IMG/VR virus record: IMGVR_UViG_2740892210_000013
From: a virus
Lineage: Duplodnaviria; Heunggongvirae; Uroviricota; Caudoviricetes
Length of the DNA: 37,133 bases
Strand: one strand, 5' to 3'
A program made the translations under genes and the position numbers. The notes below the pieces were generated by a model, which did no database searches, had not been told where the DNA came from, and saw only the letters and a list, made by a program, of their open reading frames with translations. Of the stretch, positions 11,013 through 37,133 are shown one piece after another (position 1 is the stretch's first letter; each line of letters starts with the position of its first letter).

Positions 11013-11046
11013 GGACCCAGCCAATATACACAACCTATAAAACACT

Positions 11047-11523: not shown

Positions 11524-12570
11524 TCAGGATGTGGGCTGGGTGTCCAGCAGTGCATAAGGGTTAAAGCGGATCACCTCTTCGCCAAGCCAGTCATTGATGT
11601 GCTTCATGGCCTCCATGACGGGCATCAGCTCGTTAATTGCGTAAACCCGCGCGGCCTTCTCCACATCACCAAACGCACTTTTTTCGCCCGGCATCGCCCC
11701 CATCAGTTGCGGCGGAACGCGGTGCGCAGCCAGCACATCATCACGGGATGCCGCCTTAACATTCATGAACTCATCCTTTGCGGTGATCTGCTGGAACGGC
11801 AAAATTTGCACCCCCTCTTTGCCCCCGTTGGGCGCATGGATGAGCACGTTTTTAAACGCACCACCACCACGCGCACCCTGTAGCGTTTCTTTCAGGGAGT
11901 CCATGCTTTCGCGGTTTACCTGCGCTGCACCGATGTAGATGATGCACCCGGCGTGGGATCCATTGTCGTAATACAGTTTTCTGAACATGTCCGCCGAATG
12001 AGACAGGCTGGCCGAGAGTAATGCGCCAAGATATTCCGGCATGCCGTAAATTTCCTGGTTAATGTCAGGATTCATCAGGTGGCACACTTTGCCAGGGCGA
12101 AACTGAAACGCGTCCTTGCCATCCTGCACATACCACCATGATTCAAGATCGCTTCCGCGTCGCATGTATTTCGCCAGGGCGTGCCGTAATTTAAGCGGTT
12201 CGCCGAGCATATTGCTTCGAAGCTCAAGGAATGCGTTACCGAACACAAACCAGTCCAGCGCCAGCGCCGAGAAATCCTGCCGGGAAAGCAGCGGGTGCGG
12301 AATATAGCAGCCGAGCAATACATTGCGCTTAAAGTAAAGCGCAGACTGATGCCAGGACGTTTGCCGGGCAGCTCTTGCCAGACCGTACCAGTCCACCGGG
12401 GTTTCGTACCACCGCCCGTTATCAGCACAGTACATATTGTCCAGCAGGTCATGCCCGGTCAGGCGATAAGGACCATCAAATGTGAATGCACTGAGCGATG
12501 ATTCTTTCCTGAGCGCATCAGCGAGATCAATGCGTGAACTCATGCGCACTTTTTTATTTTTTCTGCTCAT
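11524..12570 (-). CDS. Q: Portal (capsid) protein gpQ
   Basis: 348 aa, close to P2 Q size; located downstream of the large terminase on the same strand, overlapping its stop by 1 nt. Confidence 0.85.
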   Translation of the reverse strand: MSRKNKKVRMSSRIDLADALRKESSLSAFTFDGPYRLTGHDLLDNMYCADNGRWYETPVDWYGLARAARQTSWHQSALYFKRNVLLGCYIPHPLLSRQDFSALALDWFVFGNAFLELRSNMLGEPLKLRHALAKYMRRGSDLESWWYVQDGKDAFQFRPGKVCHLMNPDINQEIYGMPEYLGALLSASLSHSADMFRKLYYDNGSHAGCIIYIGAAQVNRESMDSLKETLQGARGGGAFKNVLIHAPNGGKEGVQILPFQQITAKDEFMNVKAASRDDVLAAHRVPPQLMGAMPGEKSAFGDVEKAARVYAINELMPVMEAMKHINDWLGEEVIRFNPYALLDTQPTS

Positions 12571-14321
12571 CAGAACTCCATAACCGTGAAACGCTCGTTT
12601 TCTCCTTCGCCGCCAATCGGTTCGTTAATGACAGCAAGCATGGTTGCCCACGCAAGGTCGCCGTGGCTGATCCCCCTCGCTCGGTCCGTTTCGTAAGTGA
12701 TAAAGCCGCCCGGTGTTTTCACCTTACGCACGGCGTTAAAGGCCGCGACCAGCTCGCGTTCGGCGCGATCGTATTCCCACCGCCCGGCACGCATTATTTG
12801 CAGCATTTTCAGTACCAGCGACCGTTTTGATGACAGCGTGAAGGTGTACGGAATAGCAGCAGGGAAAAACCGTTTCACTATCTGATAAACAGCCTCCCCG
12901 TTCCCGCCCGTCACATCAATGCCGATGTGTTCCACGTTGTAGCGATACGTGAACTCTTCAATGACTCTGGCCTGTTCTTCAAACTCCAGCCCCTGAACGC
13001 GTCGCGTCTCCACCGTTCGAAAACGGCCACCAGGAACAGCCGGAGGAACCACCACGGACACAGCGCCGCTGTCGCCGTTGCCACTGCTGCCGTTTGCGTC
13101 ATACCCAATCCATACTGGACGATTCCCCATCGGGCGGGGAGCAAAAGGTTTCCAGTCTTTCCAGTCGTCGTATCCGTCAACACCGCAGCCAATCAGGATA
13201 TTCAGGTTAAATGCCGATTCCCCTTCGCGGACAAACTCACACATATAGAGATTGAGGAACTCGTCTTCGGTGTTTTCATCACGAATTTCGTCGATATCGG
13301 TGTGTTTCCAGCCGTGATTGACCACATCTTCCAGCGTGACAATTTGCCGCCATGTCCGGTCAGGGCAGATAAGCCCGTTATGCAGCGTTTTCCAGTCCAC
13401 AGAAAAACGCTGGCGTTTATGCGAGGCCTTTTTCTCGTTCCAGCGGTCGCCGTTCCAGTAGGCGTATGCCTCGTGCGTTTCGGTGGATGGCGTGGAGAAG
13501 TAGGTGCGCCGCAATCCGCTGAGGGTTGCCATAGCGCCAGCCACCTTGCGCAGTTCAGCAAAGCGACTGACCCAGAAAAATTCATCAAAATAAAAATTGC
13601 CCGTATAGGACTGTGCCGACGCAGCAGAAGTGCCGAGAAAATGCAGCTCTGCGCCGTTGGAGAGGATGATTTTATCGCCCCCTTTCAGCTCCACATCAAC
13701 TTCAGCCGCGGCCTTCTGAATAATGCTTTTAAACTGGAACGCCTGACGACGCGACGCAGACAAAAAAATCTGGTTACGCTGGTAAGGTTGCGCCACATCG
13801 TCACGCAGCGCCATCAGCAGTGCTTCCTGTGCAAAATACCAGGTCGCCCCAATCTGTCGGGATTTCAGGATCATCCTGTTACGTATCCCGGCTTCCCTGC
13901 AAAGAGTCAGGGAGTCAAACCAGCCCCGCTGATGCCACTCCAGCCTGCTGATGATTTTTTCCCGCAGTGCAGCAATCTGTTCCGGCGTGAAATGATTTTT
14001 AAGTTTTTTCGCCCGGCCTTTCTTTCCTGTGGCCGTCGCATCTGGCTGGCCATCATGCAGTTTTTTAAGCTGCCGGGTCAGCAGGTCTATTTCCTTGAAG
14101 TCACCACCTGTTTTATTCTGTTTTTCAGTAAGCTGGATGAGGCGCGCATCGATGGACTGCGTGACACGCTGCACGGGTGGCGTTTCATCCCACTGGTCGC
14201 GTTTTTTCCACGCATAAATCGTGTTCGGGTTTATTCCCATCAGACGTGAGATTTCTGCGGGCGGATAACCCTGCCAGTAAAGTTGCCGCGCACGCTGGCG
14301 CACAAAAGCGTCCTGAATCAT
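12570..14321 (-). CDS. P: Terminase large (ATPase) subunit gpP
   Basis: 583 aa; P2 P-like N-terminus (MIQDAFVRQRARQLYWQGY...); divergent from the O-N-M-L operon as in P2. Confidence 0.9.
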   Translation of the reverse strand: MIQDAFVRQRARQLYWQGYPPAEISRLMGINPNTIYAWKKRDQWDETPPVQRVTQSIDARLIQLTEKQNKTGGDFKEIDLLTRQLKKLHDGQPDATATGKKGRAKKLKNHFTPEQIAALREKIISRLEWHQRGWFDSLTLCREAGIRNRMILKSRQIGATWYFAQEALLMALRDDVAQPYQRNQIFLSASRRQAFQFKSIIQKAAAEVDVELKGGDKIILSNGAELHFLGTSAASAQSYTGNFYFDEFFWVSRFAELRKVAGAMATLSGLRRTYFSTPSTETHEAYAYWNGDRWNEKKASHKRQRFSVDWKTLHNGLICPDRTWRQIVTLEDVVNHGWKHTDIDEIRDENTEDEFLNLYMCEFVREGESAFNLNILIGCGVDGYDDWKDWKPFAPRPMGNRPVWIGYDANGSSGNGDSGAVSVVVPPAVPGGRFRTVETRRVQGLEFEEQARVIEEFTYRYNVEHIGIDVTGGNGEAVYQIVKRFFPAAIPYTFTLSSKRSLVLKMLQIMRAGRWEYDRAERELVAAFNAVRKVKTPGGFITYETDRARGISHGDLAWATMLAVINEPIGGEGENERFTVMEF

Positions 14322-14475
14322 TGCTCCCCCTGAGTAATTACAGGAAGATTACCCGCGCGCGAAACCGTTCTCCTTAACCCCCTGTTCTGGCCGTTTTCTT
14401 ACAACAAAAGCCCTTTGTATCAGCCTGTTACGCTTTGCCATCATGACTGAAGAACCAGTCAGAGGGGCAAAAACT

Positions 14476-19137: not shown

Positions 19138-19279
19138 CCCACCCACATGGGGAAACCTCGGAATATGGGGCGACCGCCTTCTGGATGCACTGGAAACCTG
19201 TAACGCGGATAAACGGGCCATTGCTGAACTGGATAAGAGAATAGCCGAACTGACACACCAGACGGGAGTAACACAATGA
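18998..19279 (+). CDS. lysC: Rz1-like outer-membrane lipoprotein spanin (LysC equivalent), embedded in the +1 frame of lysB
   Basis: MNAPTLCLTLVLLTGC lipobox; Pro-rich; overlaps the lysB 3' end. Confidence 0.5.
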   Translation: MNAPTLCLTLVLLTGCAGTQNAPGPAPSVRLIPQTLTMPVTPPPFPDPPTWGNLGIWGDRLLDALETCNADKRAIAELDKRIAELTHQTGVTQ

Positions 19280-21153
19280 CCAGTAAGAACTTTGCACTGA
19301 TTACAGCCATGACACAGGCTGAACTGACTCAAAAGGTGAATGAACATCTTGCGAAAGGGTGGCATCTTCAGGGGGAGACGCGGGTTGCCTACGAACCCGG
19401 CACCCCGTGGTATCTAATGCAGGCAATGGTGGCCGATGGCACTACAGACATCTCACCTGATTCCCCCCAGCACGGCAGCGTGCCGGAGTGGTATTACGTG
19501 GTGGTACTTGCTGGTCAATCCAATGCCATGTCATATGGTGAGGGAATGCCGCTGCCGGATTCTTACGATGCGCCCCACCCACGCATTAAGCAACTGGCCC
19601 GTCGCAACACAGTGACTCCCGGTGGTAAAGCATGCGCATTTAACGACATCATTCCGGCAGACCACTGCCTGCATGATGTTCAGGATATGAGCGCACTGAA
19701 TCACCCGAATGCAGACCTGAGCAAAGGGCAGTATGGCTGTGTCGGACAGGGCTTGCATATTGCCAAACGCCTGTTGCCTTACATTCCACAGAATGCCGGG
19801 ATTTTACTGGTTCCATGCTGTCGTGGTGGTTCGGCATTCACCCAGGGCGCGGAGGGGACATTCAGCGAGTCCACAGGAGCCAGTCAGGATTCGGCTCGCT
19901 GGGGTGTGGGTAAACCTTTATATCAGGACCTGATTTTGCGCACGAAGGCCGCATTGCAGAAAAACCCAAAAAACATGCTGCTGGCCGTATGCTGGATGCA
20001 GGGCGAATTTGACATGAGCGCCGCTACGTACTCACAGCAACCTCCGCTGTTTACGGCCATGCTGAAACAGTTTCGTGCGGACATTACCGAGTTTAACACG
20101 CAGTGTCATGGAGGCAGAGCGGCAAGTGTGCCATGGATTTGTGGTGACACGACGTATTACTGGAAAAACACCTACGGCACGCAGTACGACACCATTTACG
20201 GGGCGTACAAAAACAGGGAGAGCGACAACGTTTTCTTTGTGCCGTTCCTGACCGATGGTAGTGGCAACAATACCTCCACCAACGCACCAACGGAAGATCC
20301 GGATGCTGCAAGTGAGGGATATTACGGTTCGGCATCCCGAACGAACAAAAACTGGGTATCATCAAATCGCCAGACGCATTTCAGCTCATGGGCGCGTCGT
20401 GGCATTATTCCCGATCGTATGGCAACCGCTATTCTGAACGTAGCCGGTCGCACCTTAGCCTTCATCAGTGGTAAGGCACCGGAAATCAAACCCTCGCCCG
20501 GCGGCGACACGCCATCGGGGCCGTCTGAAGATGCATCCGTACGCACAATCTCCCTGTTGCCGACAGCCGGAGATGCTGCTGCGCAGGGCTGGAGCATTAA
20601 GAATGGCGGAATTCAGTTGTCAGAGGGTGTATTTAAGATCACCAAGCAGAGCAATAAAACCTGGTCCCTGACGCGCCCGGTGGATGACGCAGTCTCCCTG
20701 CTGACACGGGGTGGCAGACTGAGCTGTAAGTTTCGACTGTCAGGCGCACTGACCAACAATCAGTTCGGTCTGGGAATTTATCTGTATACCGATGTAGCGT
20801 TACCTGACGTCGTGGCGATGACCGGGACTGGTAACCCGTTCCTGATGTCGTTCTTCACCCAGACCACAGACGGCAAACTGAATCTGATGCATCACAAGAA
20901 AGCAGGAAACACAAAGTTGGGCGAGTTCGGGAATTACAGTAACGACTGGCAGACGCTGGAGCTGGTGTTCACCGCCGGCAGTGCCACGGTTACTCCGAAA
21001 CTGAATGGAGTGGCTGGCCCGGCATTCCAGGTCATAAAAGACAGTCTGACACTGGGGCTGAATGCGCTGACGTTAACTGATATCACTAAAAATGCCGCGT
21101 ACGGCGTCGATATCGGCAGCCTGGTGCTGGAAATCAATAATCCCGCAGCATAA
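19276..21153 (+). CDS. NanS-p-like sialate O-acetylesterase (N-terminal DUF1737-like, SGNH/SASA esterase core, C-terminal beta-rich carbohydrate-binding-like domain)
   Basis: VVVLAGQSNAMSYGEG (GQSN motif of the SASA/SGNH esterase family); N-terminus resembles prophage NanS-p proteins; 625 aa; ATGA-coupled to lysC. Confidence 0.65.
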   Translation: MTSKNFALITAMTQAELTQKVNEHLAKGWHLQGETRVAYEPGTPWYLMQAMVADGTTDISPDSPQHGSVPEWYYVVVLAGQSNAMSYGEGMPLPDSYDAPHPRIKQLARRNTVTPGGKACAFNDIIPADHCLHDVQDMSALNHPNADLSKGQYGCVGQGLHIAKRLLPYIPQNAGILLVPCCRGGSAFTQGAEGTFSESTGASQDSARWGVGKPLYQDLILRTKAALQKNPKNMLLAVCWMQGEFDMSAATYSQQPPLFTAMLKQFRADITEFNTQCHGGRAASVPWICGDTTYYWKNTYGTQYDTIYGAYKNRESDNVFFVPFLTDGSGNNTSTNAPTEDPDAASEGYYGSASRTNKNWVSSNRQTHFSSWARRGIIPDRMATAILNVAGRTLAFISGKAPEIKPSPGGDTPSGPSEDASVRTISLLPTAGDAAAQGWSIKNGGIQLSEGVFKITKQSNKTWSLTRPVDDAVSLLTRGGRLSCKFRLSGALTNNQFGLGIYLYTDVALPDVVAMTGTGNPFLMSFFTQTTDGKLNLMHHKKAGNTKLGEFGNYSNDWQTLELVFTAGSATVTPKLNGVAGPAFQVIKDSLTLGLNALTLTDITKNAAYGVDIGSLVLEINNPAA

Positions 21154-21176: not shown

Positions 21177-21644
21177 ATGCTTAAGACAAACAGTCTGCGA
21201 GAGTCCATGCTTCATGGGTGTCGGTGGTGCCAGGCTAATCCCGAGAAATTCACCATTTTCGTGGAGAGCGGCAACATTGAAACGACCGGAGAAGCGCCCT
21301 CGTTTGTTTACCGCTATCAGATGGTGATGTTTGTCATGGATTACGCCGGAGAGCTGGACGACCTCACGCTGCCGCTGCTGGCGTGGTTATCCGAAAATCA
21401 GCCACAGTTGTTGCTCAATCCGGAGCGTAATCAGGACATCAAATTTTCTGCCGTTATCAATGACGATGACAGCGCCGATCTCCTGTTTACGCTCCCCCTG
21501 CGGGAACGCGTTCGCATCACGCGCAACAGTCAGGGCACACCGCAGGCAGAACACCTGCCGGAGCCAAAACCCCGTCTGCCTTCTTCCGAAGGCGACTGGT
21601 CGCATGTATTCCAGGATGTGACGTGGGGTGAAAGCGATGGATAA
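21177..21644 (+). CDS. R: Tail completion protein gpR
   Basis: 155 aa; MLKTNSLR... and AWLSENQP resemble P2 R. Confidence 0.75.
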   Translation: MLKTNSLRESMLHGCRWCQANPEKFTIFVESGNIETTGEAPSFVYRYQMVMFVMDYAGELDDLTLPLLAWLSENQPQLLLNPERNQDIKFSAVINDDDSADLLFTLPLRERVRITRNSQGTPQAEHLPEPKPRLPSSEGDWSHVFQDVTWGESDG

Positions 21645-22272
21645 GGCATTCACCCGCGTGGATGAAACCTTTGAGGCTATCCGCGACAGCCTGAATCAGC
21701 AGGCCATCAATAACATCGCCAGAAAGCTGGCACAGGATTTACGTCGCGCCCAGCAGGCACGTATCCGGTCACAAAAAGCGCCGGACGGGACCGAATGGAC
21801 ACCACGCAGACGCCGCGTAACCCGGATACAGGAGCGCATTCGCTTTATCTGGAATAACGAAGCACGCACGCTGAAAAACTGGCATCACGACACAGGGAAA
21901 TACGGGCGAACCATTACCGGGTGGGATGAGGATAAAAACAATATCCGCACGTTTTACCGGGATGACATCGACCGTTTTCTGGAAATACGCACCCGGCGCA
22001 TCAACCAGGACAGCACAAAGCGCGTCCCCATGTTCGTAAAACTGCGCACCGCCCGCTACCTGAAAGCCCGTGCAGATGCCTCCGGTGTGACGGTGGGTTA
22101 CAGCGGCGTGGCCGCACGTATTGCACGCGTTCATCAGTTCGGTGAGCGCGATCAGGTTGCGCCGGGCATTTTCACCGATTACCCGGTACGTGAGCTGTTG
22201 GGTATCAGCCAGGCAGATGAGCGCCTGATTTATAACACGGTGCTGGGCCGGATTGCGGAGGCTGTACGGTGA
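21628..22272 (+). CDS. S: Tail completion/virion morphogenesis protein gpS (longer than P2 S)
   Basis: APDGTEW motif region resembles P2 S; overlaps the R 3' end. Confidence 0.65.
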   Translation: MKAMDKAFTRVDETFEAIRDSLNQQAINNIARKLAQDLRRAQQARIRSQKAPDGTEWTPRRRRVTRIQERIRFIWNNEARTLKNWHHDTGKYGRTITGWDEDKNNIRTFYRDDIDRFLEIRTRRINQDSTKRVPMFVKLRTARYLKARADASGVTVGYSGVAARIARVHQFGERDQVAPGIFTDYPVRELLGISQADERLIYNTVLGRIAEAVR

Positions 22273-22850
22273 GCGCAGAACTCATGCGACTGCTGAGCAA
22301 CATCATCCGCACCGGGATCATCTCTGAAGTTGATGAGAAGTCCTGGCGCGTGCGCGTTCGCAGCGGCGAACTGGAAACAGGCTGGTTGCGCTGGAACACC
22401 ACGCGCGCGGGAGCCTTCAATGTGTGGCTGCCGCCATCACCAGGCGAACAGGTGGTAATTGCCTGCATTGGCGGCAACCCGGAAACCGCCATGATAATTG
22501 GCAGCCTGTGGAGTGATGCCAGTCCGGCCCCCGGCAAAAGCCTGAAAGAAATCGTGGTCAGCGCGCCGGATGGCGCGGTGTTCCGCTACGACGCAGACGC
22601 TGGCGCACTGAGCGCCAGCGGCATGAAAACAGCCACCCTGCAGGCATCCGTCAGCGTGACACTGGATACGCCCGTCGTGGAATGCACAAACCTTCTGAGA
22701 ACGGCGACGCTTGACGTCACAAAAGGGGGAAAGATGAGCGGCAATATCACGCACAGCGGCGGCAATTTCACCTCAAACGGCATTACCGTGCATACGCATA
22801 AGCACGGTGGCGTTAAAGGTGGCAGCGATTCGACAGGAGGCCCGCAGTGA
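22269..22850 (+). CDS. V: Baseplate spike protein gpV
   Basis: 193 aa; Gly-rich C-terminus (HTHKHGGVKGGSDSTGG) typical of gpV spikes. Confidence 0.85.
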   Translation: MSAELMRLLSNIIRTGIISEVDEKSWRVRVRSGELETGWLRWNTTRAGAFNVWLPPSPGEQVVIACIGGNPETAMIIGSLWSDASPAPGKSLKEIVVSAPDGAVFRYDADAGALSASGMKTATLQASVSVTLDTPVVECTNLLRTATLDVTKGGKMSGNITHSGGNFTSNGITVHTHKHGGVKGGSDSTGGPQ

Positions 22851-24698: not shown

Positions 24699-26710
24699 CA
24701 GCGAAATACTACGCCATTCTGACTAATCAGGGCGCGGAACGACTGGCTAACGCGACGATGCTCGGCAGTAAGCTGAATTTGACGCAAATGGCCGTTGGTG
24801 ATGCAAATGGTGTGTTACCAACACCAAACCCTGCACAAACAAAACTGATTAACCAGAAACGCATTGCACCGCTGAATCTTCTGAATGTTGACCCTAACAA
24901 TCAGAGCCAGATTATTGCGGAGCAAATCATCCCTGAAGACGAGGGAGGATTCTGGATCCGTGAGATTGGTCTTTATGATGATAAAGGTGTACTCATTGCG
25001 GTGGCAAACTGCCCGGAAACGTACAAACCGCAGTTGCAGGAAGGCAGTGGACGCACCCAGACTATCCGCATGATTCTGGTTGTCACGAACACCAAAGCCA
25101 TCACGCTGAAAATCGACCCGTCTGTGGTTCTGGCAACCCGCAAATATGTGGATGATAAAATCTCAAAGCACGAGCAGTCACGACGTCACCCGGACGCCTC
25201 GCTGACCGCAAAAGGCTTTGTTCAACTCAGTAGCGCCACTAACAGCGATTCTGAAACGCTGGCTGCAACGCCGAAAGCGGTTAAGGCCGCGTATGACCTT
25301 GCTAACGCAAAATATACCGCTCAGGACGCCACGACGGCACGAAAAGGCATTGTCCAGCTCAGTAGCGCCACCAACAGCGATTCAGAAACGCTGGCGGCAA
25401 CACCAAAGGCGGTAAAGGCAGCCTATGACCTTGCTAACGGGAAATATACCGCACAGGACGCCACGACGGCACAAAAAGGAATTGTCCAGCTCAGTAGTGC
25501 AACCAACAGCACATCTGAAACGCTTGCTGCAACACCGAAAGCAGTGAAAGCAGCTAATGACAATGCGAATGGTCGGGTACCTTCTGCCCGTAAGGTGAAT
25601 GGTAAGGCGCTTTCGGCGGATATAACACTGACGCCGAAAGATATTGGTACGCTTAACTCAACAACAATGTCATTCAGCGGTGGTGCTGGTTGGTTCAAAT
25701 TAGCAACGGTAACCATGCCACAGGCGAGTTCTGTTGTTTCAATTACGTTGATTGGTGGCGCTGGATTTAACGTCGGTTCACCTCAACAGGCAGGTATATC
25801 TGAACTTGTTTTGCGTGCAGGTAATGGTAATCCGAAGGGGATTACTGGTGCTTTATGGCAGCGCACATCGACAGGGTTTACAAATTTTGCCTGGGTCAAT
25901 ACATCTGGTGATACTTACGATATTTACGTTGCAATCGGAAATTATGCGACTGGTGTAAATATTCAATGGGATTATACCAGTAATGCCAGCGTGACGATTC
26001 ATACGTCACCAGCATATTCTGCTAATAAGCCGGAAGGGTTAACGGACGGTACAGTTTATTCACTCTATACGCCATCAGAGCAGTTTTATCCGCCTGGCGC
26101 ACCAATCCCGTGGCCATCGGATACCGTTCCGTCTGGTTATGCCCTGATGCAGGGGCAGACTTTTGACAAATCTGCATACCCAAAACTTGCAGCGGCTTAT
26201 CCGTCAGGCGTGATCCCTGATATGCGTGGCTGGACGATTAAGGGCAAACCCGCCAGTGGCCGGGCCGTATTGTCTCAGGAACAGGACGGCATTAAATCGC
26301 ACACCCACAGCGCCAGCGCATCCAGTACGGATTTGGGTACGAAAACCACATCGTCGTTTGATTACGGGACGAAAACAACCTCACTATTTGACTATGGGAC
26401 CAAAACTACCAGTAACGACGGGAGTCACACGCATTCAATACCAACATCAGATGGTGCAAACCAGGGGGGGAAAATTCCACTGACATCTGGGCGTCTGGCA
26501 ACTCAATATACATCAGCAACAACAGGTTCCTCTGGCTCACATTCTCATACTGTAGGTATTGGTTCTCATCAGCACACTGTCGGTATTGGTGCACACACGC
26601 ACTCCGTTGCGATTGGCTCACATGGACACACCATCACCGTTAACGCTGCTGGTAACGCGGAAAACACCGTCAAAAACATCGCATTTAACTATATTGTGAG
26701 GCTTGCATAA
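24695..26710 (+). CDS. H: Tail fiber protein gpH with internal tandem repeats and His-rich C-terminal receptor-binding region
   Basis: N-terminal ~170 aa and the repeated [43 protein letters not shown] unit match P2 H as I recall it; C-terminal [33 protein letters not shown] repeats. Confidence 0.9.
25211..25570 (+). repeat. About 2.8 tandem copies of a 129-bp (43-aa) repeat inside H
   Basis: Amino-acid identical units with synonymous nucleotide differences, read directly. Confidence 0.8.
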
Positions 26711-27288
26711 TGGCATTCAGAATGAGTGAACAATCACGGACCATAAAAATTTATAATCTACTGACCGGAACCAATGAGTTTATTGGTGAAGGTGATGCAT
26801 ACATTCCACCTCATACAGGTCTGCCAGCAAACAGTACCGATATTGCCCCGCCAGATATTCCGGCTGGCTTCGTGGCCGTTTTCAACAGTGATGAGGCATC
26901 GTGGCATCTCGTTGAAGACCATCGGGGTAAAACGGTTTATGACGTGGCATCAGGGGACTCGTTATTTATTTCTGAACTCGGTCCATTACCGGAAAATGTT
27001 ACCTGGTTGTCGCCGTATGGAGAGTATCAGAAGTGGAACGGCACATCCTGGGGGAAAGATGCAGAAGCAGAAAAACTGTTTCGGATAAGGGAGGCGGAAG
27101 AAACAAAAAACAGCCTGATGCAGGTAGCCAGTGAGCATATTGCACCACTTCAGGATGCTATAGATTTAGATATTGCGACGGAGGAAGAGACATCGTTACT
27201 GGCTGCATGGAAGACATATCGAGTATTGTTGCATCGTGTTGATACAACAGTAGCAGCAGATATTGAGTGGCCAGTCGCCCCACAATAA
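26710..27288 (+). CDS. G: Tail fiber assembly chaperone gpG (Tfa)
   Basis: 192 aa directly after H with overlapping stop/start; Tfa-like size and position. Confidence 0.8.
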
Positions 27289-27297
27289 AAAGAAAAA

Positions 27298-27321
27298 GCC
27301 ATCGATAGAAATATCGATGGC
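27298..27321. terminator. Bidirectional stem-loop (GCCATCGATA-GAAA-TATCGATGGC) between G and the convergent acetyltransferase gene
   Basis: Perfect 10-bp inverted repeat followed by TTTATG; preceded by an A-run on the other strand. Confidence 0.55.
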
Positions 27322-27331
27322 TTTATGTACT

Positions 27332-27937
27332 CTATTTATACAATACAGCACCGCTCTTTTTAGTTATATATGTGCAGTTCGATGGTATATCTTTATTTAT
27401 AAAAGACATTGCACCTATTTTTACATTATCCCCAATTTTACGGGATAATCCAATGATGCAACAATTAGCTCCGATATCAACGTTGCTACCAATTTTTACT
27501 CTTGAACCAGGTATGTCACCATCTATCTGTCCAATGGTCGTATTCTGTCGTAACACCAGATTTTCACCAGCATCAACAGCAAAATGAACAACAATTCCAG
27601 CATGATGGGGAATTGTTAACCCTTTTCCAATATTTGCGCCCAATCCAATTTCGCAACCAAATTTGTTAATTATTTTACTGTTTAACTTCTTGGCTGCTTT
27701 CTTATGTAATTTATTACCATTAATATACATTTCGTTAGCCAACCGCCACCAGAAAAGGAAATTCCTGTTACGCTGCTTTTTCTCTCTTAAAAGCCTCCAG
27801 ATATCCATACGTTTCCGCCGAATTACTTCATGTTTCCAGAAGTTTTTTAAATTAGTAGAGTTCCCAAATAAAACAAAGTGAATTGCCATTAGGTAAGACA
27901 GCACGATAATCTCCTTAATTATTATTTCAGACCACAC
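27332..27937 (-). CDS. Hexapeptide-repeat (left-handed beta-helix) O-acetyltransferase, CysE/WcaB/NeuO-like; AT-rich cargo gene
   Basis: 201 aa; hexapeptide-like repeats GLGANIGKGLTIPHHAGIVV...IGSNVDIGANCCIIG...IGDNVKIGAMSFI; much lower GC than flanking phage genes. Confidence 0.7.
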   Translation of the reverse strand: MWSEIIIKEIIVLSYLMAIHFVLFGNSTNLKNFWKHEVIRRKRMDIWRLLREKKQRNRNFLFWWRLANEMYINGNKLHKKAAKKLNSKIINKFGCEIGLGANIGKGLTIPHHAGIVVHFAVDAGENLVLRQNTTIGQIDGDIPGSRVKIGSNVDIGANCCIIGLSRKIGDNVKIGAMSFINKDIPSNCTYITKKSGAVLYK

Positions 27938-27955
27938 ATGTTATAAGGTTAAGAG

Positions 27956-27984
27956 ATTATAAAATCCTGTTGTTTATTATTCAA
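27956..27984 (-). promoter_or_regulatory. Sigma70-like promoter for the acetyltransferase gene (TTGAAT, 17-bp spacer, TATAAT on the minus strand)
   Basis: Read directly; the -10 hexamer lies ~20 nt upstream of the ATG. Confidence 0.45.
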
Positions 27985-28060
27985 AAACAATTTTCTGAGA
28001 AGGACATACAACAGCAAGTCGCCAGTCACCTTCATCAGGAAATTGGCGACATACGTTAAA

Positions 28061-28555
28061 TCAGAGCAGCCCCTTAACTGAGCTGGCCGCGCTATTAAGG
28101 GATGATGTCACCTTATCTTTGAAGCCGGACAACATATCGCTGAACGATGAGGATTGCAGGCGCTCCCGCAAATCCTCATCACAGCGTTCAAGAGTCAGTG
28201 AAAATTCTATCTTTTTCGCCTTACCGTAGCGATCAAACTCGGAACGGGTCGTATTCGTTTCAGTCAGTACATACATGCCGTAAATCTGCCCGACACCATC
28301 AATCAGAGGCCAGGGCCGTCCTGTATATGCCTGCGTGGTCAGCAATGAAAGCGACACTTCGCCACCTGTAATTTCAGGATAAAGCACGCCGGAAAGCACA
28401 ATGCGATCATCACCTGCACCGATATACTGCCAGCTTGCTGAACGGTTAACGCGTTCATTTTTCACATGCCGCCAGCTTTTGTTTTGCTGTAACTGCTGAT
28501 GCGGCAATGTGCGCAGCTCAAAAACAAACATGCCGTAGATCATCATCATGACCAT
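28061..28555 (-). CDS. U: Tail protein gpU
   Basis: 164 aa; FVFELRTLP...YPEITGG...PWPLIDGVGQIYGMYV resembles P2 U. Confidence 0.8.
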   Translation of the reverse strand: MVMMMIYGMFVFELRTLPHQQLQQNKSWRHVKNERVNRSASWQYIGAGDDRIVLSGVLYPEITGGEVSLSLLTTQAYTGRPWPLIDGVGQIYGMYVLTETNTTRSEFDRYGKAKKIEFSLTLERCDEDLRERLQSSSFSDMLSGFKDKVTSSLNSAASSVKGLL

Positions 28556-28561
28556 GACTCC

Positions 28562-31402
28562 TCAATCTTTATCGTAAAAACTGCCACGCCCGGCACGGGC
28601 GCGCCGTTCCATCTCTGCCCTGACCATTTCACCGACCAGTTTCGCCAGTTCGCGGGGATTCTGCGTAACAACGTTATGCAGATGAACATGAATTTCACCG
28701 CAAAATCCGGAGACAGCAGGCTCCCGGTTACGGGAAGTTGCAGGAACTGATGCCACTGGCGATCGTATGGCCTCCGCCACCGGGCGGGAGCTGGCCGCAA
28801 CAACAGGGACCAGCGCCGGAGGCAGCGGAGCCGAGACCACGGGTGTGATATTAATTGCGGGGGGCTTACTGACCTGCGCAATCTTCTGCTCCTGCCACTC
28901 CCCACGAACAGCAAGTGCGCGGGGCAGGTTCTTAAAGACAATATCGCCGGGGCCAATGCGTTTTTTCGTCTCATCAACCAGCTTACCTGTGTTATCAGCA
29001 ATTTTGCTGAGTCTGCGTAGCGTCCCGGTATTGCTGTCTGTGAGCGGTTTGTTGTCTTTGGGTTTATCACCTCCGGTGCCATTGCCATTTTCCACAGGCT
29101 TCGGCGGATTGATTTTCGCCAGGTCCCCCTGAAGCAAGGCAACCTTGTCCTGAAGAATGGCCGCACGCTGTGCGTCTTCGATTTTCTTGCGCGCCCTTTC
29201 AGCTTCATCCGGAAGGACGCCAAGTTTTTCAAGTATCCACGCCAGCGTATCCAGTAGCATTTTTGCAGGTGTCAGAACAAGCTGTAACGCACCGCCAAGA
29301 ACGTTACCGAATATCTCGCCAGCACTGGTACATTTATCCAGCGTTTCCTTACTGGACTCCATCGGTGACAGCAGCGATTTAAACCAGTTAAACACCTGGC
29401 TGATCCCGCTTCCGATTGCGTCAAAAACAGGGCCAAACCGTTCAAAGGTTTCGCGCAACGGAGCCAGCCGTTCCATAATCCCACTGAACACCCCTGCATA
29501 AAACGCCTTGATGGGTTCCCAGTATTTCCAGATGAGAACCGCCGCAGCCACAAACGCAGCAGCAATCAATCCGACCGGACTGAACAGCGCCCCGATAGCG
29601 CCTCCCAGTAACGAAATGGAACCCGTCACCATTCCCCATAATGCAGGCAGAACCCTGACAACATTCAATGATCCGGTCAGGAGGGAAAAACCAAGACGCA
29701 GTTTTGCCAGTGGGCCAGCAAGCACACCAATAGCCAGCGACAACGAGCCTATGGTTGCAGTCATTGCCAGCAGAGCACCGCCTGCAACCAGTAGCTGGCG
29801 CGTCAGTGCCGGATGGGCCTGCGCCAGCGCCGTCACCTTCGATACCACCCGCGTGAGCCACTGCGTGACAGAACGCAGCGGACCGTCAATCAGATCTGCA
29901 ATGCGGATGCGCAACCCTTCCCATGCACTGCCGAGTGATTTCAGATCGCCGTCAAGGTTGTTGGCCATAACCTTTGCTGTGCGTTCAGCCTCACCGCGCG
30001 CGCCTTCAAGTTCTTTTCTCAGTTTGGGTAAGGAGCCGTCACCTGCCGCATCAACGAGGGCCATAAATGATGTGAAAGCCTCTTCTCCGGCAATGTCCTT
30101 AAAGAACGATACCCGGTCAACTTCCCCGTATTTGCGGGTGGCTTTATAAAGGTCAGCCAGCAGATCTTCCATCGGGCGCATTTTGCCGTTCGCGTCAGAG
30201 ACGGACACGCCCAGCTCTTTCAGCGCCTCTGCTGCTGCCTTTGGCGGTGATGCCAGACGAGCCAGGCTGGCACGCATTGCCGTCCCGGCATCACTCCCTC
30301 TGATACCCATATTCGCCAGCACGCCAGCCATCGCTGCGGCCTGCTCCAGCGATATTCCCAGCTTACCCGCCACCGGACCGGCATATTTCATGGTTTCGCC
30401 CAGTGCGCGAAGGTCAGTGTTGGTACGGGTAAACGCTGCAGTGAGTGTGTCACCGACCCGGTCCATCTGGTCAGCAGAAAGGCCGAACTGCGTCAGGATA
30501 TTTGAGCCAATATCCGCCGTCTCGCCGAGATCCATACCGCCAGCCGTTGCCATGCTCAACACGCCGGGAAGCGCAGCCTGAATGGCCTGCGGTGTGAAGC
30601 CAGCCATTGCAAGAAATGCCTGCCCACTGGCGGCATCGCCTGCGGTGAACTGCGTTTCAGAGCCAAGTTTTAACGCCTGCTCACGCAGCGCCTTAAACTG
30701 CGGGCTGTTCTGGTCGATTCGCGTCAGCGCCTGAACGCGGGACATCTCTTTCCCGAACCCGATTGCGGGCTGCAAAAAACGCCCGGCAGCATAGCCGCCC
30801 GCCGCTGCCGCACCAATTGCCAGTACACCACCTGTTTTCAGTTTTCCCGCTGTTTCCTGCGCACGCGAATACCGCTCACGCGCCCGCGTTACACGCGCAA
30901 GCGCCTGCCGTTCGCGTTCAAGCTGGTTGTTGTACTGTTCGGTGCGCCTGATGGCCTGTTGAATGGTGTTATCGCTGCCTGTCAGGGAAATGCCGTGGCG
31001 TTTCAGCTCTCCGCCAAGCTCCCGCATTTTCTGAATTTCCCGTGTGCGCGATTCATTCAGGCGTTCAAGCCGGGTGCTTAACTGCTGCATCAGCTTTTGT
31101 TGCTTTTCGCTGAGCACTGTACCCGTGCGTTGTAACTGATTAAGGGCGTTAAGCTGGCGTCGTGCTTTCACGATACCCGCATCCGCTTTACTGACAGCGT
31201 CGCGGGCGCGCTCAAATGAACGCGCCTGACGCTCGAGATTTTTGATCGCCCCCTGCGTTCGCTGGATGGAGTCACCAAACTGCCCCATCAGGCGGCGGGC
31301 GTTTTCGGCAGGCCGGGTCAGCCTGTCAACGGCGCTGAAAGCGACCCGGATATCAAGAGTCTTCATTGTCTGCATTCCCGCTGCGAAGTGCCGCCCGCTC
31401 AC
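28562..31402 (-). CDS. T: Tail tape measure protein gpT (start may be internal, e.g. MQTMKTLD...)
   Basis: 946 aa, Ala/Gly-rich with coiled-coil and transmembrane-like segments; between E/E' and U. Confidence 0.85.
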   Translation of the reverse strand: MSGRHFAAGMQTMKTLDIRVAFSAVDRLTRPAENARRLMGQFGDSIQRTQGAIKNLERQARSFERARDAVSKADAGIVKARRQLNALNQLQRTGTVLSEKQQKLMQQLSTRLERLNESRTREIQKMRELGGELKRHGISLTGSDNTIQQAIRRTEQYNNQLERERQALARVTRARERYSRAQETAGKLKTGGVLAIGAAAAGGYAAGRFLQPAIGFGKEMSRVQALTRIDQNSPQFKALREQALKLGSETQFTAGDAASGQAFLAMAGFTPQAIQAALPGVLSMATAGGMDLGETADIGSNILTQFGLSADQMDRVGDTLTAAFTRTNTDLRALGETMKYAGPVAGKLGISLEQAAAMAGVLANMGIRGSDAGTAMRASLARLASPPKAAAEALKELGVSVSDANGKMRPMEDLLADLYKATRKYGEVDRVSFFKDIAGEEAFTSFMALVDAAGDGSLPKLRKELEGARGEAERTAKVMANNLDGDLKSLGSAWEGLRIRIADLIDGPLRSVTQWLTRVVSKVTALAQAHPALTRQLLVAGGALLAMTATIGSLSLAIGVLAGPLAKLRLGFSLLTGSLNVVRVLPALWGMVTGSISLLGGAIGALFSPVGLIAAAFVAAAVLIWKYWEPIKAFYAGVFSGIMERLAPLRETFERFGPVFDAIGSGISQVFNWFKSLLSPMESSKETLDKCTSAGEIFGNVLGGALQLVLTPAKMLLDTLAWILEKLGVLPDEAERARKKIEDAQRAAILQDKVALLQGDLAKINPPKPVENGNGTGGDKPKDNKPLTDSNTGTLRRLSKIADNTGKLVDETKKRIGPGDIVFKNLPRALAVRGEWQEQKIAQVSKPPAINITPVVSAPLPPALVPVVAASSRPVAEAIRSPVASVPATSRNREPAVSGFCGEIHVHLHNVVTQNPRELAKLVGEMVRAEMERRARAGRGSFYDKD

Positions 31403-31882
31403 GCCAGCTAACCACTTCGCCGGGCGTCATCATGAAGATTTCGGCGGGCGACCAGTTAAAAATAACGGCAATATCTGCCACAAAGTCTTCTATATGCTCA
31501 AAGCACACAACCGTGATCAGGCTTCCGTCGCCTGTTCGTTCTTCCCGCCAGAGTCCGCACCGCTCAAAAAATTTACGGCAACCACACATAACTGAATAAA
31601 GTCACGGGATGCCATTTTTTTGATCGTCACTTCATCCAGTCGCGGTGATGTCACGCGTGACAGCAGCGTAAACATGGATTCCGCTTTCAGATTCAGCACA
31701 TCAGACAACGACAAATCTCGCAGAGATCCAGCCTGCTCAATAGCTCCGGTGATCTCCACATACGTGATTTTTTCGCCGCCTCGCTCAATTGGTTGGGTAA
31801 GTTTTACGCCACGCTCACTGGTTTCTTTCACAGTGTCAGCAACGACCGTGTTTTCGGTATCGATGTTTTTCGTCTCTTTCAT
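31353..31882 (-). CDS. gpE+E' fusion by programmed -1 frameshift at TTTTTTG (31565..31571, minus strand)
   Basis: Hand translation: E frame ...V N F L S...; the -1 frame after T_TTT_TTG continues FFERCGLWREER... to the stop at 31353, matching the 78-aa ORF. Confidence 0.6.
31517..31882 (-). CDS. E: Tail assembly chaperone gpE
   Basis: 121-aa ORF upstream of T, containing the TTTTTTG slippery site near its 3' end. Confidence 0.7.
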   Translation of the reverse strand: MKETKNIDTENTVVADTVKETSERGVKLTQPIERGGEKITYVEITGAIEQAGSLRDLSLSDVLNLKAESMFTLLSRVTSPRLDEVTIKKMASRDFIQLCVVAVNFLSGADSGGKNEQATEA

Positions 31883-31936
31883 CAGGAAACTCCTTTCAGT
31901 CAGAGGCGACGCACTGCGCCGCCTGCATATTACTTA

Positions 31937-32449
31937 TCAGCCAAGCCCAAGCGCGGAACGGATGCGATCGGGCACAATGTCTTTGCCGTCCTTCCGGTAA
32001 ATGAAATTCAGCAGGTCAATCTCCCACAACGGGCGATCGTTAACACTCAGCTTGTAGTAGGTGTTTTTAATGGCGTAAGTGTGTGATGTGGCTTCGCCCT
32101 GTTTGGCTTCCCCCATATCAATTTCCGTCACACGTCCGCGCATTTCGACTTCATACAGGTCGCTTTCTGCATCGGTGTAGTATTCACCCGCAAAACGCAG
32201 CAGCGTGCCGTCAATCGTGCCGCCATACTTCAGGAACAGCTCACGAACTGCGCCCCCCATGACAAAGCTCGCATCAAGCGCGGAGTCGTCCAGACCGAGA
32301 TCAATACTTACCGCCCCCATCATGCCACCACCACGATAGCTGTCGGTTTTGCGCGTCAGTTTAGGCAAGGTGACGGACGTCACCTTACCCACTTCGTTTT
32401 CACCATCCACAAACAGCGTAAAAAAGCGAAGATGTTTTGGTACAGCCAT
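31937..32449 (-). CDS. FII: Tail tube protein gpFII
   Basis: 170 aa; directly downstream of the sheath gene on the same strand. Confidence 0.85.
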   Translation of the reverse strand: MAVPKHLRFFTLFVDGENEVGKVTSVTLPKLTRKTDSYRGGGMMGAVSIDLGLDDSALDASFVMGGAVRELFLKYGGTIDGTLLRFAGEYYTDAESDLYEVEMRGRVTEIDMGEAKQGEATSHTYAIKNTYYKLSVNDRPLWEIDLLNFIYRKDGKDIVPDRIRSALGLG

Positions 32450-33633
32450 CAGGCACCTCCCAGCACCGCAAATGCGGGACCAAAGAATTCATCAGTAAAC
32501 GACTGGTAAAGCTCCATGTCTTCCAGCGGAGGAACGGGCGTATATTTGTAGCGAATACGCACACGCCCCTGACGTAAATCCGTGGTGCTGTTATCCACCA
32601 CGTCATACCAGCACGACGCCCCAATCAGTTTCCCGGCAGTAACCAGTGAATCCAGTTTTGCCCTGATGGCACTGATAACATCCTTCACGTTCGCAGGCGT
32701 CAGTGGACTGTCGATGGTTTCAAACTGCGCTTCCGCAATTGAATCAGCCAGCACCTGTGCGGTTCGGGTATACACCTCAAAGATGTAGGCGTTCGTTTCC
32801 GGTGTGCGGTTGCCCCAGAAGCGGAACCCGTTGCGACGAATAATGGTCGTGATTTCTTTGTTGTTGAGGCTGTTGGCATCACTGTCTTCGGCCTGCAACG
32901 ACCAGAACACATGCCTGGACATCCCCAGCACATTTTTAACCGGAACGTTGGACAGCGATTTGTGCCAGCCCTGCTCATGGTCAATGTACGCACGAAGGCC
33001 GCACGCATAGGCAGGCGCGGGGAACGTTTCGTTTTTGCCACTTTTCGGGTTGTAGGCGATGAAGTCCGGCCATAAGAGCATCACCTCACGTTCGTTGAAT
33101 TTCTGGCGGTAGGTAATCGCCTCAGCCATCGTGTTACAGCCGTGACATGAGGCATACACAAACGCGCGCAGTTTACCCGCAATCACGCACAGGGATTTTG
33201 TTACCGCCTCCGTGTCCAGCTCCGGCGCGGCCAGAATACGCGGACGGTATCCGATGCTTTCATCCTGCTCTGCAACAAGCAGCGCATACATCCCCGTATA
33301 GCTGCCGTCAGATTCAGAACCACCGATAACCAGTTGATCCTGCGTTTTTCCGTCTTCTTCTTTGTGTTCAGCCACGCGAACGACGATCACCTTTGTGCTC
33401 ACCTGGTCTGCGATGGCCTTAAGCGCACGATAAAGCGTCCCCGTTGTCCCGCATTTTCCCAGCACGTCATTGACGCGGGTCAGCAGTGTGGGCTTGTTCA
33501 GCGGGAACAGCTTCGCGTCCGCATCATCCGCCGTTGCCACGATACCGATAACGCTGGAATCAACATCGTTAATCGCTGTTACCAGGTCGGTATTTTCCGT
33601 AACACGGGCACCATGAAAACGAGTTTCACTCAT
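32449..33633 (-). CDS. FI: Contractile tail sheath protein gpFI
   Basis: 394 aa; FPLNKP, GWHKSLSNV, RRNGFRFWGNRT, YTRTAQVLADS and YTPVPPLE match the P2 FI pattern I recall. Confidence 0.9.
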   Translation of the reverse strand: MSETRFHGARVTENTDLVTAINDVDSSVIGIVATADDADAKLFPLNKPTLLTRVNDVLGKCGTTGTLYRALKAIADQVSTKVIVVRVAEHKEEDGKTQDQLVIGGSESDGSYTGMYALLVAEQDESIGYRPRILAAPELDTEAVTKSLCVIAGKLRAFVYASCHGCNTMAEAITYRQKFNEREVMLLWPDFIAYNPKSGKNETFPAPAYACGLRAYIDHEQGWHKSLSNVPVKNVLGMSRHVFWSLQAEDSDANSLNNKEITTIIRRNGFRFWGNRTPETNAYIFEVYTRTAQVLADSIAEAQFETIDSPLTPANVKDVISAIRAKLDSLVTAGKLIGASCWYDVVDNSTTDLRQGRVRIRYKYTPVPPLEDMELYQSFTDEFFGPAFAVLGGA

Positions 33634-33790
33634 AGCTTCAGCCCCTTGTATCCGTTAAATGATTCGGCAACAATCATCACCCACCACGCGCGTAATCTCA
33701 CCCCTGCGCCGTTCTCCCGCCACGGCGACAACAAAAAGCAGTAACCCCCTCCGCACGCACATGCGACCATGCCGCACAGGGAGGGAGCAG

Positions 33791-34900
33791 ATGACCGACA
33801 CCACCATGCAATTGCTCAGTCAGGGCACAGACCCCGTAAAAATGCCGGATTTTGATATTCTCGCGGAGGGTAAAACGCTGTCAGGCGTGGCAGAGCGCCT
33901 GATGAGCCTGTCACTGACCGACAACCGGGGATTTGAGGCGGACCAGCTCACCATCACGCTGGATGATGCGGATGGTCAGTTGCAGCTACCGCCACGGGGC
34001 GCGCGCCTGACGGTTCTCATTGGCTGGAAGGGAGAACCGCTGACAGAAAAAGGCACTTACATTGTTGATGAAATCGCTCACGAAGGACCGCCGGACAGGC
34101 TGACTGTTTCAGCCAGAAGCGCAGATTTTCGGGATGAATTTAACGTTAAACATGAGGTGTCCTGGCATGATGTGACCGTTGAGCGTGTGGTATCCGCCAT
34201 CGCTCATCGGTATGGTCTGAAACCGCAAATCAGCGAAATGCTGATGGATATCGAAATCGACCACGCCGACCAGACCGAAGAAAGCGACATGTCCTTCCTT
34301 ACGCGCATGGCGGAAATGCTGGGCGCAATCACCACGGTAAAAAGCGGCAATCTGTTATTCATCATGCCAGGTGGTGGCGTGAACGCACAGGGCCAGCCGT
34401 TGCCCTCGTTCGCCATTACACGCAGCAGCGGCGATCGCCATCAGTTCCGCATTGCTGACCGCGAGGCGTATACGGGGGTACGCGCCTACTGGCTTGATCT
34501 TAATTACGGGAAAAAGAAAAAAGTCAGCGTGAAACGCCGTAAACCGCCAAAACCCAAAAAGGAGAAAAGCAGCAGCCGTGAAGGTGATTATATGGAAGGC
34601 GCGGAAGGCAATGTGTTTGTGTTACGCAAGACTTATCAGAACGAGCAGGCAGCAAGACGCGCAGCGGCGGCAAAGTGGCAGCAACTACAACGCGGAGCCG
34701 CATCATTCTCCATCACGCTGGCGCGTGGACGTGCAGAACTCTACCCCGAAATGCATGGCACGGTAACAGGATTTAAAAGCGAGATTGATAATCAGGACTG
34801 GATTATTGCAAAAGCCGAGCACACCATTGATAACAGCGGCTTTACCACGCAGCTTGAGCTTGAGGCAAAAATCCCGGAATGGATAGCGGAAACAGAGTGA
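33791..34900 (+). CDS. D: Tail protein gpD
   Basis: Start MTDTTMQLLS... with GGGAGG RBS; the ORF track starts 132 nt earlier; size and position before ogr fit P2 D. Confidence 0.8.
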   Translation: MTDTTMQLLSQGTDPVKMPDFDILAEGKTLSGVAERLMSLSLTDNRGFEADQLTITLDDADGQLQLPPRGARLTVLIGWKGEPLTEKGTYIVDEIAHEGPPDRLTVSARSADFRDEFNVKHEVSWHDVTVERVVSAIAHRYGLKPQISEMLMDIEIDHADQTEESDMSFLTRMAEMLGAITTVKSGNLLFIMPGGGVNAQGQPLPSFAITRSSGDRHQFRIADREAYTGVRAYWLDLNYGKKKKVSVKRRKPPKPKKEKSSSREGDYMEGAEGNVFVLRKTYQNEQAARRAAAAKWQQLQRGAASFSITLARGRAELYPEMHGTVTGFKSEIDNQDWIIAKAEHTIDNSGFTTQLELEAKIPEWIAETE

Positions 34901-34942: not shown

Positions 34943-35203
34943 ATGTTCCGTTGTCCGCTTTGTGGCGCATCTGCCCGTATCCGCACCAGTCGTCCGGAAA
35001 ATGATTCAAACACCGTGCGGCAAAAGTATTACCAGTGTAACAACCTGGAATGCGGCGTATGCTTCTCAACACTGGAAGCTTTCCATAAATTCACATCGAA
35101 ACACGCCTCCGGCGTTCACTCATCAGAAGGTATCCCGTGGCATGAGCTGCCAGCTTCACACAGGGGAAACAATCAGATGAGTTTGCCTTTACCTCAGAAT
35201 TAA
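34943..35203 (+). CDS. ogr: Ogr/Delta-family zinc-finger late transcription activator
   Basis: MFRCPLCGASARIRTSR...YYQCNNLECGVCFSTLEAF with four Cys, resembling P2 Ogr (MFHCPLC...). Confidence 0.8.
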   Translation: MFRCPLCGASARIRTSRPENDSNTVRQKYYQCNNLECGVCFSTLEAFHKFTSKHASGVHSSEGIPWHELPASHRGNNQMSLPLPQN

Positions 35204-35291
35204 CAGGCAGAATTGCCGGAGTAACAAAAAAGCGATAGATTACGCGCGGGTGCCTTTCGGCTGATGGTCGGAGGGAATACCCGAAGGCCAG

Positions 35292-35477
35292 ATGTGGAAA
35301 GGCCCCGAGTCAACTTTAACGTTAACCCGAGGCCCTAACCATCTACCCTCAGCAAGTGATAGGTTAGCGCCTCCCCGAAAAAGGAGCAAGCGCTATGTCG
35401 CAAAAATCGCTTACGGCCATCACATTCTGCGTGACGGCAATCCTCATCATCTGGATGCTGCACGGTTCGCTGTGTGA
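35292..35477 (+). CDS. Possible mok-like overlapping reading frame of the hok locus
   Basis: 61-aa ORF overlapping the hok start in another frame, as in hok/mok/sok loci. Confidence 0.3.
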   Translation: MWKGPESTLTLTRGPNHLPSASDRLAPPRKRSKRYVAKIAYGHHILRDGNPHHLDAARFAV

Positions 35478-35535
35478 AATACGGATGAGTTTCTGGGGAG
35501 CGGAGTTTGCGGCGTTCTTACAGTGTAAGCAGTAA
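35395..35535 (+). CDS. Hok/Gef-family type I toxin (46 aa)
   Basis: MSQKSLTAITFCVTAILIIWMLHGSLCEIRMSFWGAEFAAFLQCKQ: N-terminal transmembrane helix plus the SLCEIR...E.AAF signature; AAGGAG RBS. Confidence 0.6.
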   Translation: MSQKSLTAITFCVTAILIIWMLHGSLCEIRMSFWGAEFAAFLQCKQ

Positions 35536-35629
35536 GGAAACCGCGACGGGGAAGGCAACTTCCCCGTCAATCGGTTGCCAGGGTAAAGGTCGAAAAGGCA
35601 CCCTATTTCCAGTTGACGTGAACAACAAG

Positions 35630-35661
35630 CCCGCAGCGTAAAAACTGCGGGTTTTCTTTTT
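35630..35661 (+). terminator. Intrinsic terminator at the hok mRNA 3' end (CCCGCAG-loop-CTGCGGG + T-run)
   Basis: Read directly. Confidence 0.55.
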
Positions 35662-35694
35662 GGTTCCCTCACTCATGAGGACACCAAAAAACAA

Positions 35695-35724
35695 AGCCCA
35701 CAGCATAGAAGCTGTGGGCTTTTT
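35695..35724. terminator. Bidirectional stem-loop (AGCCCACAGC-ATAGAA-GCTGTGGGCT) flanked by A/T runs
   Basis: Perfect 10-bp inverted repeat with T-runs on both strands. Confidence 0.55.
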
Positions 35725-35796
35725 GCATTCAAAGATGGACGTTATATGGACACTTAAAAATAAAATCCATTTATTTTCAAATGATTAAACCTCTAC

Positions 35797-35840: not shown

Positions 35841-37133
<1,293 letters not shown>

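Follow-up and report, generated by a model that had tools for sequence, protein, structure and literature searches.

A tail-gene block inverted relative to phage P2, and a spacer resembling a bidirectional late promoter, in P88-type prophages

Gene map of the prophage

The DNA analyzed here, referred to as the window, is a single stretch of 37,133 nucleotides. It is filled by a complete P2-like prophage, with an integrase gene (1..1008, minus strand) at one end and the host seryl-tRNA synthetase gene (35841..37133) at the other. The tail genes were placed by tblastn of the P2 proteins against the window, which returned E-values from 1e-111 (FI) to 2e-9 (E), and both PHROGs and Pfam concur on the sheath, tube, tape measure, GpE, GpU, GPD, and Ogr_Delta assignments. 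Reading from 33633 down to 28061, the minus strand carries the homologs of P2 FI, FII, E/E', T, and U. The first gene of this operon, FI (32449..33633), encodes the tail sheath and is matched by the P2 protein from 33615 to 32482 (45% identity, E = 1e-111; phrog_23). Next come the tail tube gene FII (31937..32449; P2 match from 32449 to 31943, 42% identity, E = 8e-38; phrog_55) and E (31517..31882; P2 match from 31816 to 31562, E = 2e-9), with the E' frame, recognized by the Pfam model Phage_P2_GpE, at 31353..31589. The slippery heptamer TTTTTTG of P2 (the T6G −1 frameshift site) can be read in E/E' at 31571..31565. The tape measure gene T (28562..31366) is matched by P2 T from 31357 to 29198 (E = 5e-102) and by the PHROG tape measure families; its ORF reaches a GTG at 31402, and the ATG at 31366 is the likely start. 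The block ends with the tail protein gene U (28061..28555; P2 match from 28549 to 28169, 46% identity, E = 5e-39; Pfam Phage_P2_GpU, 5.5e-39).

The plus strand carries D and ogr. D (33791..34900) encodes the gpD homolog, the baseplate hub or late control protein D, and stands detached from the FI operon (P2 match from 33845 to 34897, 48% identity, E = 2e-101; Pfam Phage_GPD). Downstream of it, the ogr homolog (34943..35203) encodes an 86-aa C4 zinc-finger late activator of the Ogr/Delta family (Pfam Ogr_Delta, 5.1e-14; P2 Ogr match from 34943 to 35101, 41.5% identity). The start of D at 33791 agrees with the P2 gpD alignment and is preceded by a Shine-Dalgarno sequence, GGGAGGGA. A longer ORF for D, opening at the ATG at 33659, was rejected: it runs 44 codons past the P2 alignment and would cover the Ogr-type box described below together with the −10 elements predicted on its two sides.

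These placements bear out the preliminary description of this DNA, which had assigned FI through U to the minus strand and D and ogr to the plus strand; the ORF coordinates confirm that FI and D diverge across 157 bp (33634..33790). Its account of P2 was likewise right: in the RefSeq record a single operon, read from pF, comprises FI, FII, E, E', T, U, and D and shares its strand with ogr. The further statement that the block opposes all the remaining late genes held for D and ogr; it is too broad as a generalization because P and Q (11524..14321) also lie on the minus strand, as they do in P2.

The claim that a cargo island sits beside the 3' end of U was correct as well. The cargo unit (27289..28060, minus strand) comprises a hexapeptide-repeat acetyltransferase gene (27332..27937, minus strand), which directly adjoins U, together with a promoter-like site (27984..27956) and a strong terminator (27324..27295), both from the promoter and terminator scan. 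The gene has a GC content of 38%, matches the Pfam Hexapep model below the curated cut-off, and bears the RefSeq name "serine acetyltransferase." Homology to phage P88 begins at about 28055, so that it ends 6 nt past the U stop codon. The cargo occupies the same place as Z/fun of P2, after G; it borders on the 3' end of U as a consequence of the inversion of the block. The cargo unit is found in 510 complete Escherichia coli genomes; 66 of the matching places are plasmid-borne.

Distribution of the divergent layout

From 28055 to about 35660 the window is 94 to 97% identical in DNA sequence to the P88-type phages, including P88, PhiR44_2, Chuche, Shae_phiSM, P88_4B11, and others. P88 itself is 96.5% identical over 7.6 kb and 99.0% identical across the FI/D junction, for which the P88-type records as a group range from 94.4 to 99%. 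In the RefSeq annotations of P88 and P88_4B11, the genes U, T, E', E, FII, and FI share a strand, and D and ogr lie opposite them. P88 shares with the window the gene order, the strands, and an FI/D spacer of 157 to 158 bp. It differs in having an alternative fiber segment and a DNA invertase gene between the tail-fiber genes and U, where the window has the low-GC acetyltransferase gene; the window also has, between its lysis genes and R, a gene for a SASA-esterase. The window is thus an ordinary P88-type prophage (Xuanwuvirus, Peduoviridae).

The same layout is annotated in phiT5282H (Novemvirus), ST16-OXA48phi5.4 (Reipivirus), 3LV2017 (Reginaelenavirus), and SEN5 (Senquatrovirus); at least five Peduoviridae genera accordingly show it in their RefSeq annotations. 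The match to Serratia phage KSP20, known from a 6-kb fragment, also spans the FI/D junction. A 1157-bp junction query is covered on one strand by the more distant phages, and it is present at 80% or greater query coverage in 1109 of 5426 complete E. coli genomes (~20%). Scanning IMG/VR with an FI alignment recovered 80 loci whose FI identity ranges between 55 and 100%. In every one of the 79 with both genes, FI and D are divergent. The distance between the aligned 5' ends of FI and D is 157 to 258 bp in 77 of these, the other two having a shortened FI match. At the opposite end of the block, U converges on the baseplate gene I in 38 of 38 loci holding both.

The divergent layout is, in short, the ordinary and long-deposited arrangement of a very common phage clade. 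The preliminary description had implied that it was unusual, and had itself named a standard orientation within the lineage as the finding that would tell against it; this orientation is indeed the standard one, seen in P88, in four more genera, in every informative IMG/VR locus, and in a fifth or so of the E. coli genomes. An assembly artifact, or a recent rearrangement private to one strain, is scarcely credible given an identical junction in independent phage isolates and in so many complete host genomes. Keyword searches of the literature found no paper discussing the inversion or the layout. The P88 paper and the SEN4/5 paper contain no words for inversion, orientation, or gene order, and the passages of the Serratia PP4 paper found by phage name do not discuss the layout.

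Conserved elements in the FI/D spacer

An exact search for TGT-N12-ACA yielded four matches in the window, fewer than expected by chance, and none in the FI/D spacer. This pattern missed the spacer site because the box there reads TCT-N12-ACA; it was the comparison of relatives that revealed it. We stacked 19 diverse FI/D spacers without gaps on their best box, which brought out conserved features at fixed offsets. In the window, the central feature is a predicted Ogr-type activator dyad, GTTCT-N12-ACAAC (33711..33732), with its core TCT-N12-ACA at 33713..33730 and its center at 33721.5, which would be common to both divergent promoters. The box T(G/C)T-N12-ACAAC is kept in all 74 unique FI/D spacers, as TGT in 20 and as TCT in 54, and several relatives have the full dyad GTTGT-N12-ACAAC. 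The preliminary description had suggested that this spacer be searched for a divergent pair of late promoters carrying Ogr-type TGT-N12-ACA sites. The spacer does hold a candidate site of this type, one mismatch from the consensus; it is a single shared site and not a pair.

On either side of the box lie candidate −10 elements at mirror-image distances. Toward FI, the predicted −10 of pFI, GATGAT (33673..33678, minus strand), lies 43.5 to 48.5 nt from the dyad center. At that distance the relatives show the consensus GA(T/A)(T/G)AT, with A2, A5, and T6 each present in 18 of the 19 stacked spacers. Toward D, the predicted extended −10 of pD, TG-c-GACCAT (33762..33770, plus strand), has its hexamer 43.5 to 48.5 nt from the same center, and in relatives a hexamer of the form (A/G)AnCAT, mostly following TG-n, occurs at the mirror-image distance to within 1 nt. 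Taken from these −10 positions, the predicted starts fall at about 33666 for pFI and about 33777 for pD, some 111 bp apart, each with the dyad center about 55 nt upstream; the predicted D leader would be just ~13 nt long.

A weight matrix built with no P88-group spacers, only those of other relatives, detects exactly two sites in the whole window, at 33713 (49.4 bits) and at 14386 (15.9 to 27.1 bits), against a maximum of 2.1 bits in shuffled sequence. The looser pattern TST-N12-ACAAC is not enriched across the window (3 found versus 2.1 expected), and the case for a shared box therefore rests on position and conservation and not on counts. A sigma-70 consensus scan of 33634..33790 returned no site, a result that is expected of activator-dependent promoters yet is not positive evidence for them. 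Taken together, these features make the FI/D spacer look like a bidirectional late promoter, with its starts and its Ogr dependence predicted from the motifs and their spacing.

Comparison with the late promoters of P2

The second weight-matrix site lies in the spacer between P and O and affords an internal comparison. Here a TCT-N12-ACA box (14386..14403) has a candidate −10 for leftward transcription, TAATCT (minus strand, read from 14351 to 14346), and one for rightward transcription, TG-c-CATCAT (14435..14444, plus strand), at the same offsets as in the FI/D spacer; the corresponding starts would fall near 14339 and 14450. The P2 late-promoter consensus is TGT-N12-ACA, and in phage Smp131 one site is reported to serve both PP' and PO' (PMC3931495). 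The P2 RefSeq record gives mapped starts at 17626 for pF, 3016 for pP, and 3127 for pO, and labels 3057-3087 "activator binding site; pO, pP promoters." The P2 pP/pO box occupies 3063..3080; its center is 55.5 nt from either mapped start, and the starts are separated by 111 bp.

The FI/D unit of the window thus resembles the P2 pP/pO unit in having one dyad midway between divergent promoters, with starts ~111 bp apart as predicted in the window and 111 bp apart as mapped in P2. It differs in that it would drive FI and D instead of P and O, and in that its starts are predicted from −10 elements whereas those of P2 are mapped.

Relative to the P2 F operon, the window retains seven orthologous genes, the same order within FI to U, and the slippery E/E' site. 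The box lies 88.5 nt from the FI start in the window and 82.5 nt from it in P2, and the strong GTTGT half of the box is FI-distal in both. Because both the FI distance and the placement of the strong half agree, the FI/D box is probably the ortholog of the pF box. What sets the window apart is that D is cut off on the other strand and that the block is inverted with respect to D, ogr, and the O-to-G genes. The weight-matrix scan found no pV-type late promoter in the window, its two sites being those described above, and S and V overlap.

Origin of the inverted block

FI to D are colinear in P2, 186, and phiCTX. Burkholderia phage KS5 is colinear too, as are all of the Burkholderia P2-like phages described with it (PMC3091744). 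Simple neighbor-joining trees, drawn without support values and with phiCTX as root, were made for FI and for D; in both, the phages with divergent FI and D group together as a single clade whose sister group is P2 plus 186. We consider it likely that a single old inversion became fixed in the ancestor of this clade and that the FI/D spacer now acts as a bidirectional late promoter. By this account the FI-FII-E/E'-T-U segment would have inverted once, in the ancestor of a large enterobacterial P2-like clade that includes Xuanwuvirus/P88, Novemvirus, Reipivirus, Reginaelenavirus, Senquatrovirus, and Serratia KSP20. The event would have split the P2 F operon between U and D and would have moved the pF promoter, with its Ogr site, beside D.

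The polarity of this change we infer from the outgroups, and the converse deserves consideration, namely that divergent FI and D are ancestral and that P2 and 186 acquired their colinear F operon later. The enterobacterial phages alone form just two sister groups in the trees, and the polarity hangs on the outgroups. These place the colinear order outside both enterobacterial groups, in phiCTX of Pseudomonas and in Burkholderia KS5 (PMC3091744). Parsimony therefore favors the colinear order as ancestral, and the converse polarity appears distinctly improbable.

A different mechanism is called to mind by P88 and P88_4B11, in which a DNA invertase gene lies directly beside the 3' end of U: the block might be an actively invertible segment, flipped by a serine invertase of the Hin/Gin/Cin type such as the one adjoining U in P88. 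Like the segments controlled by those enzymes, the block spans several kilobases, lies opposite to its orientation in a reference phage, and has an invertase gene as neighbor in some relatives. It departs from them in having no flanking recombination sites and a fixed orientation, and in that most of the relatives, as well as the window, lack an invertase. No pair of inverted repeats links 27.9-28.1 kb with 33.6-33.8 kb, and it is on this absence of repeats at the block boundaries that we reject an invertible segment. In addition, all of the more than 80 relatives, among them all of the informative IMG/VR loci, have a single orientation. A homolog of the P88 invertase is present in only 6 of 39 loci, a count that also disposes of the P88 enzyme as a requirement for the layout. 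Active inversion of the block thus has almost no probability, and a single ancient inversion remains the preferred account of its origin.

Expression of D and ogr

The preliminary description had held that D would need a promoter of its own once it was separated from FI. The divergence of the two genes and the conserved promoter-like elements between them support this, with the promoter itself predicted: a shared bidirectional promoter would furnish D with a promoter despite the break in the operon. D would use the free side of the symmetric Ogr site that moved with pF. A leftward transcript, FI to U, would begin at about 33666, and a rightward one, D to ogr, at about 33777. With moderate confidence, and on the strength of sequence comparison, we propose that a single Ogr box drives both pFI and pD, that the late program issues from the P/O and FI/D spacers only, with no pV, and that D and ogr are carried on a short, Ogr-activated transcript.

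It is also conceivable that D has a promoter independent of the shared box, either a weak constitutive sigma-70 promoter or one served by a second activator site, with the box acting for pFI alone. The rightward −10, GACCAT, is a poor sigma-70 hexamer, and the left half of the window box is degenerate (TCT); both points lend this alternative some credence. On the other hand, there is only one conserved box across the 74 unique spacers, and the consensus scan detects no sigma-70-like promoter in the spacer. The rightward TGn and −10 stay within 1 nt of the mirror-image distance among relatives whose FI proteins are 55 to 100% identical. Moreover, the two-sided geometry recurs in the P/O spacer and fits the mapped pP and pO starts of P2. 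An independent D promoter is on these grounds unlikely, and the single shared box is preferred. No paper describing an FI/D promoter or a single-box late program was found by keyword search of the literature, and for that reason the bidirectional-promoter reading may be undescribed; it would be a small variation on the known pP/pO design of P2.

At the other end of the FI transcript, a hairpin, GUCGCCA...UGGCGAC, followed by a U-rich stretch lies just past the U stop codon (28018..28050, minus strand; RNA fold z = −3.1 over 27945..28095). As a terminator for the FI operon it is a weak candidate because the consensus terminator scan missed it. We infer from these elements that the transcript would either end here or continue through the cargo gene to the strong terminator (27295..27324). 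The terminator scan also reported a weak hairpin overlapping the U stop codon.

Implications for operon structure and annotation

As a discovery the inverted block matters little; its modest value lies in being an example of a tolerated operon break. If the shared-box reading is correct, D acquired its late promoter when it came to lie on the free side of an activator site with dyad symmetry. Lying on the unused side of such a site, it would therefore have needed only a correctly spaced −10 for late expression. If so, too, the placement of D and ogr on a short Ogr-activated transcript would amount to a tighter positive feedback than that afforded in P2 by read-through from pF. For genome annotation, P2 is an unsuitable operon template for the P88-type prophages. 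In the window, the starts to annotate are 33791 for D and 14476 for O. Some records show small ORFs within the spacer; these coincide in part with the predicted promoter elements and are probably spurious.

A possible mobile cassette and a SASA-domain ORF among the late genes

Within 26000..28060 of the window, the tail fibre gene H in its C-terminal part, gene G (assembly) and the acetyltransferase gene are 90-93% identical to side-tail-fibre/tfa/"sacF" modules found elsewhere, in the unrelated phages JL22 and vB_EcoM-Ro157c2YLVW. Lambda-type phages match the tail-fibre and tfa part of this stretch at ~87%, with the acetyltransferase gene not included in the match, and the acetyltransferase unit by itself is found in 510 complete E. 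coli genomes, where 66 of its places are on plasmids. Judged from these sequence matches, the stretch looks like a mobile fibre-plus-acetyltransferase cassette. At the place of the acetyltransferase gene, P88 and some of its relatives carry an alternative segment of tail-fibre sequence, encoded on the opposite strand, together with a DNA invertase gene (9823..11971 of the P88 record), an arrangement listed for six of the 39 related loci. In these phages, a fibre switch like those of Mu and P1 directly adjoins the 3' end of U.

A 625-aa ORF on the plus strand (19276..21153), whose product has DUF1737, SASA (sialate O-acetylesterase) and DUF6645 domains, occupies a place where P88 has only a 137-bp gap. 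It lies with the lysis genes on one side and R on the other. Stx1a-converting phages and phage 434 carry a gene ~85% identical to it at the DNA level. In three further E. coli phage records, of which one is labeled P88-like, the matching part of the ORF is 99.9-100% identical, and each match ends at an end of the record.

Transcription and gene starts

The window has an S/V overlap at 22269..22272 (within the region 21628..22850), and no third Ogr-type site turned up over its entire length. It seems to lack the pV promoter of P2, and the genes from O to G may form a single transcript of ~12.8 kb. The longest ORF for O starts at the ATG at 14443, which falls within the predicted -10 element of pO, upstream of the predicted transcription start (~14450). 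The ATG at 14476 is preceded by GAGGGG and agrees with the alignment to P2 gpO; it is the likelier start of O.

Some records annotate small "hypothetical protein" ORFs within or across the FI/D spacer, such as gp50 of P88 (17562..17693 of its record) and SEN5_27 of SEN5 (8749..8901). A similar case in the window is an upstream in-frame ATG of D at 33659, which would extend that gene across 33659..33790. Such ORFs overlap the predicted promoter elements of the spacer, either a part of them or the whole set, and are probably not genes.

On the other side of D, the region 3' of ogr carries an annotated killer gene of the hok/gef family (MokW-like) in P88 records, and the window has a stretch matching this region at 35290..35730, likewise 3' of ogr. 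Inside it, at 35544..35722, both strands contribute to a group of several hairpins that resemble strong terminators, and the stretch is followed by the host serS gene at 35841.
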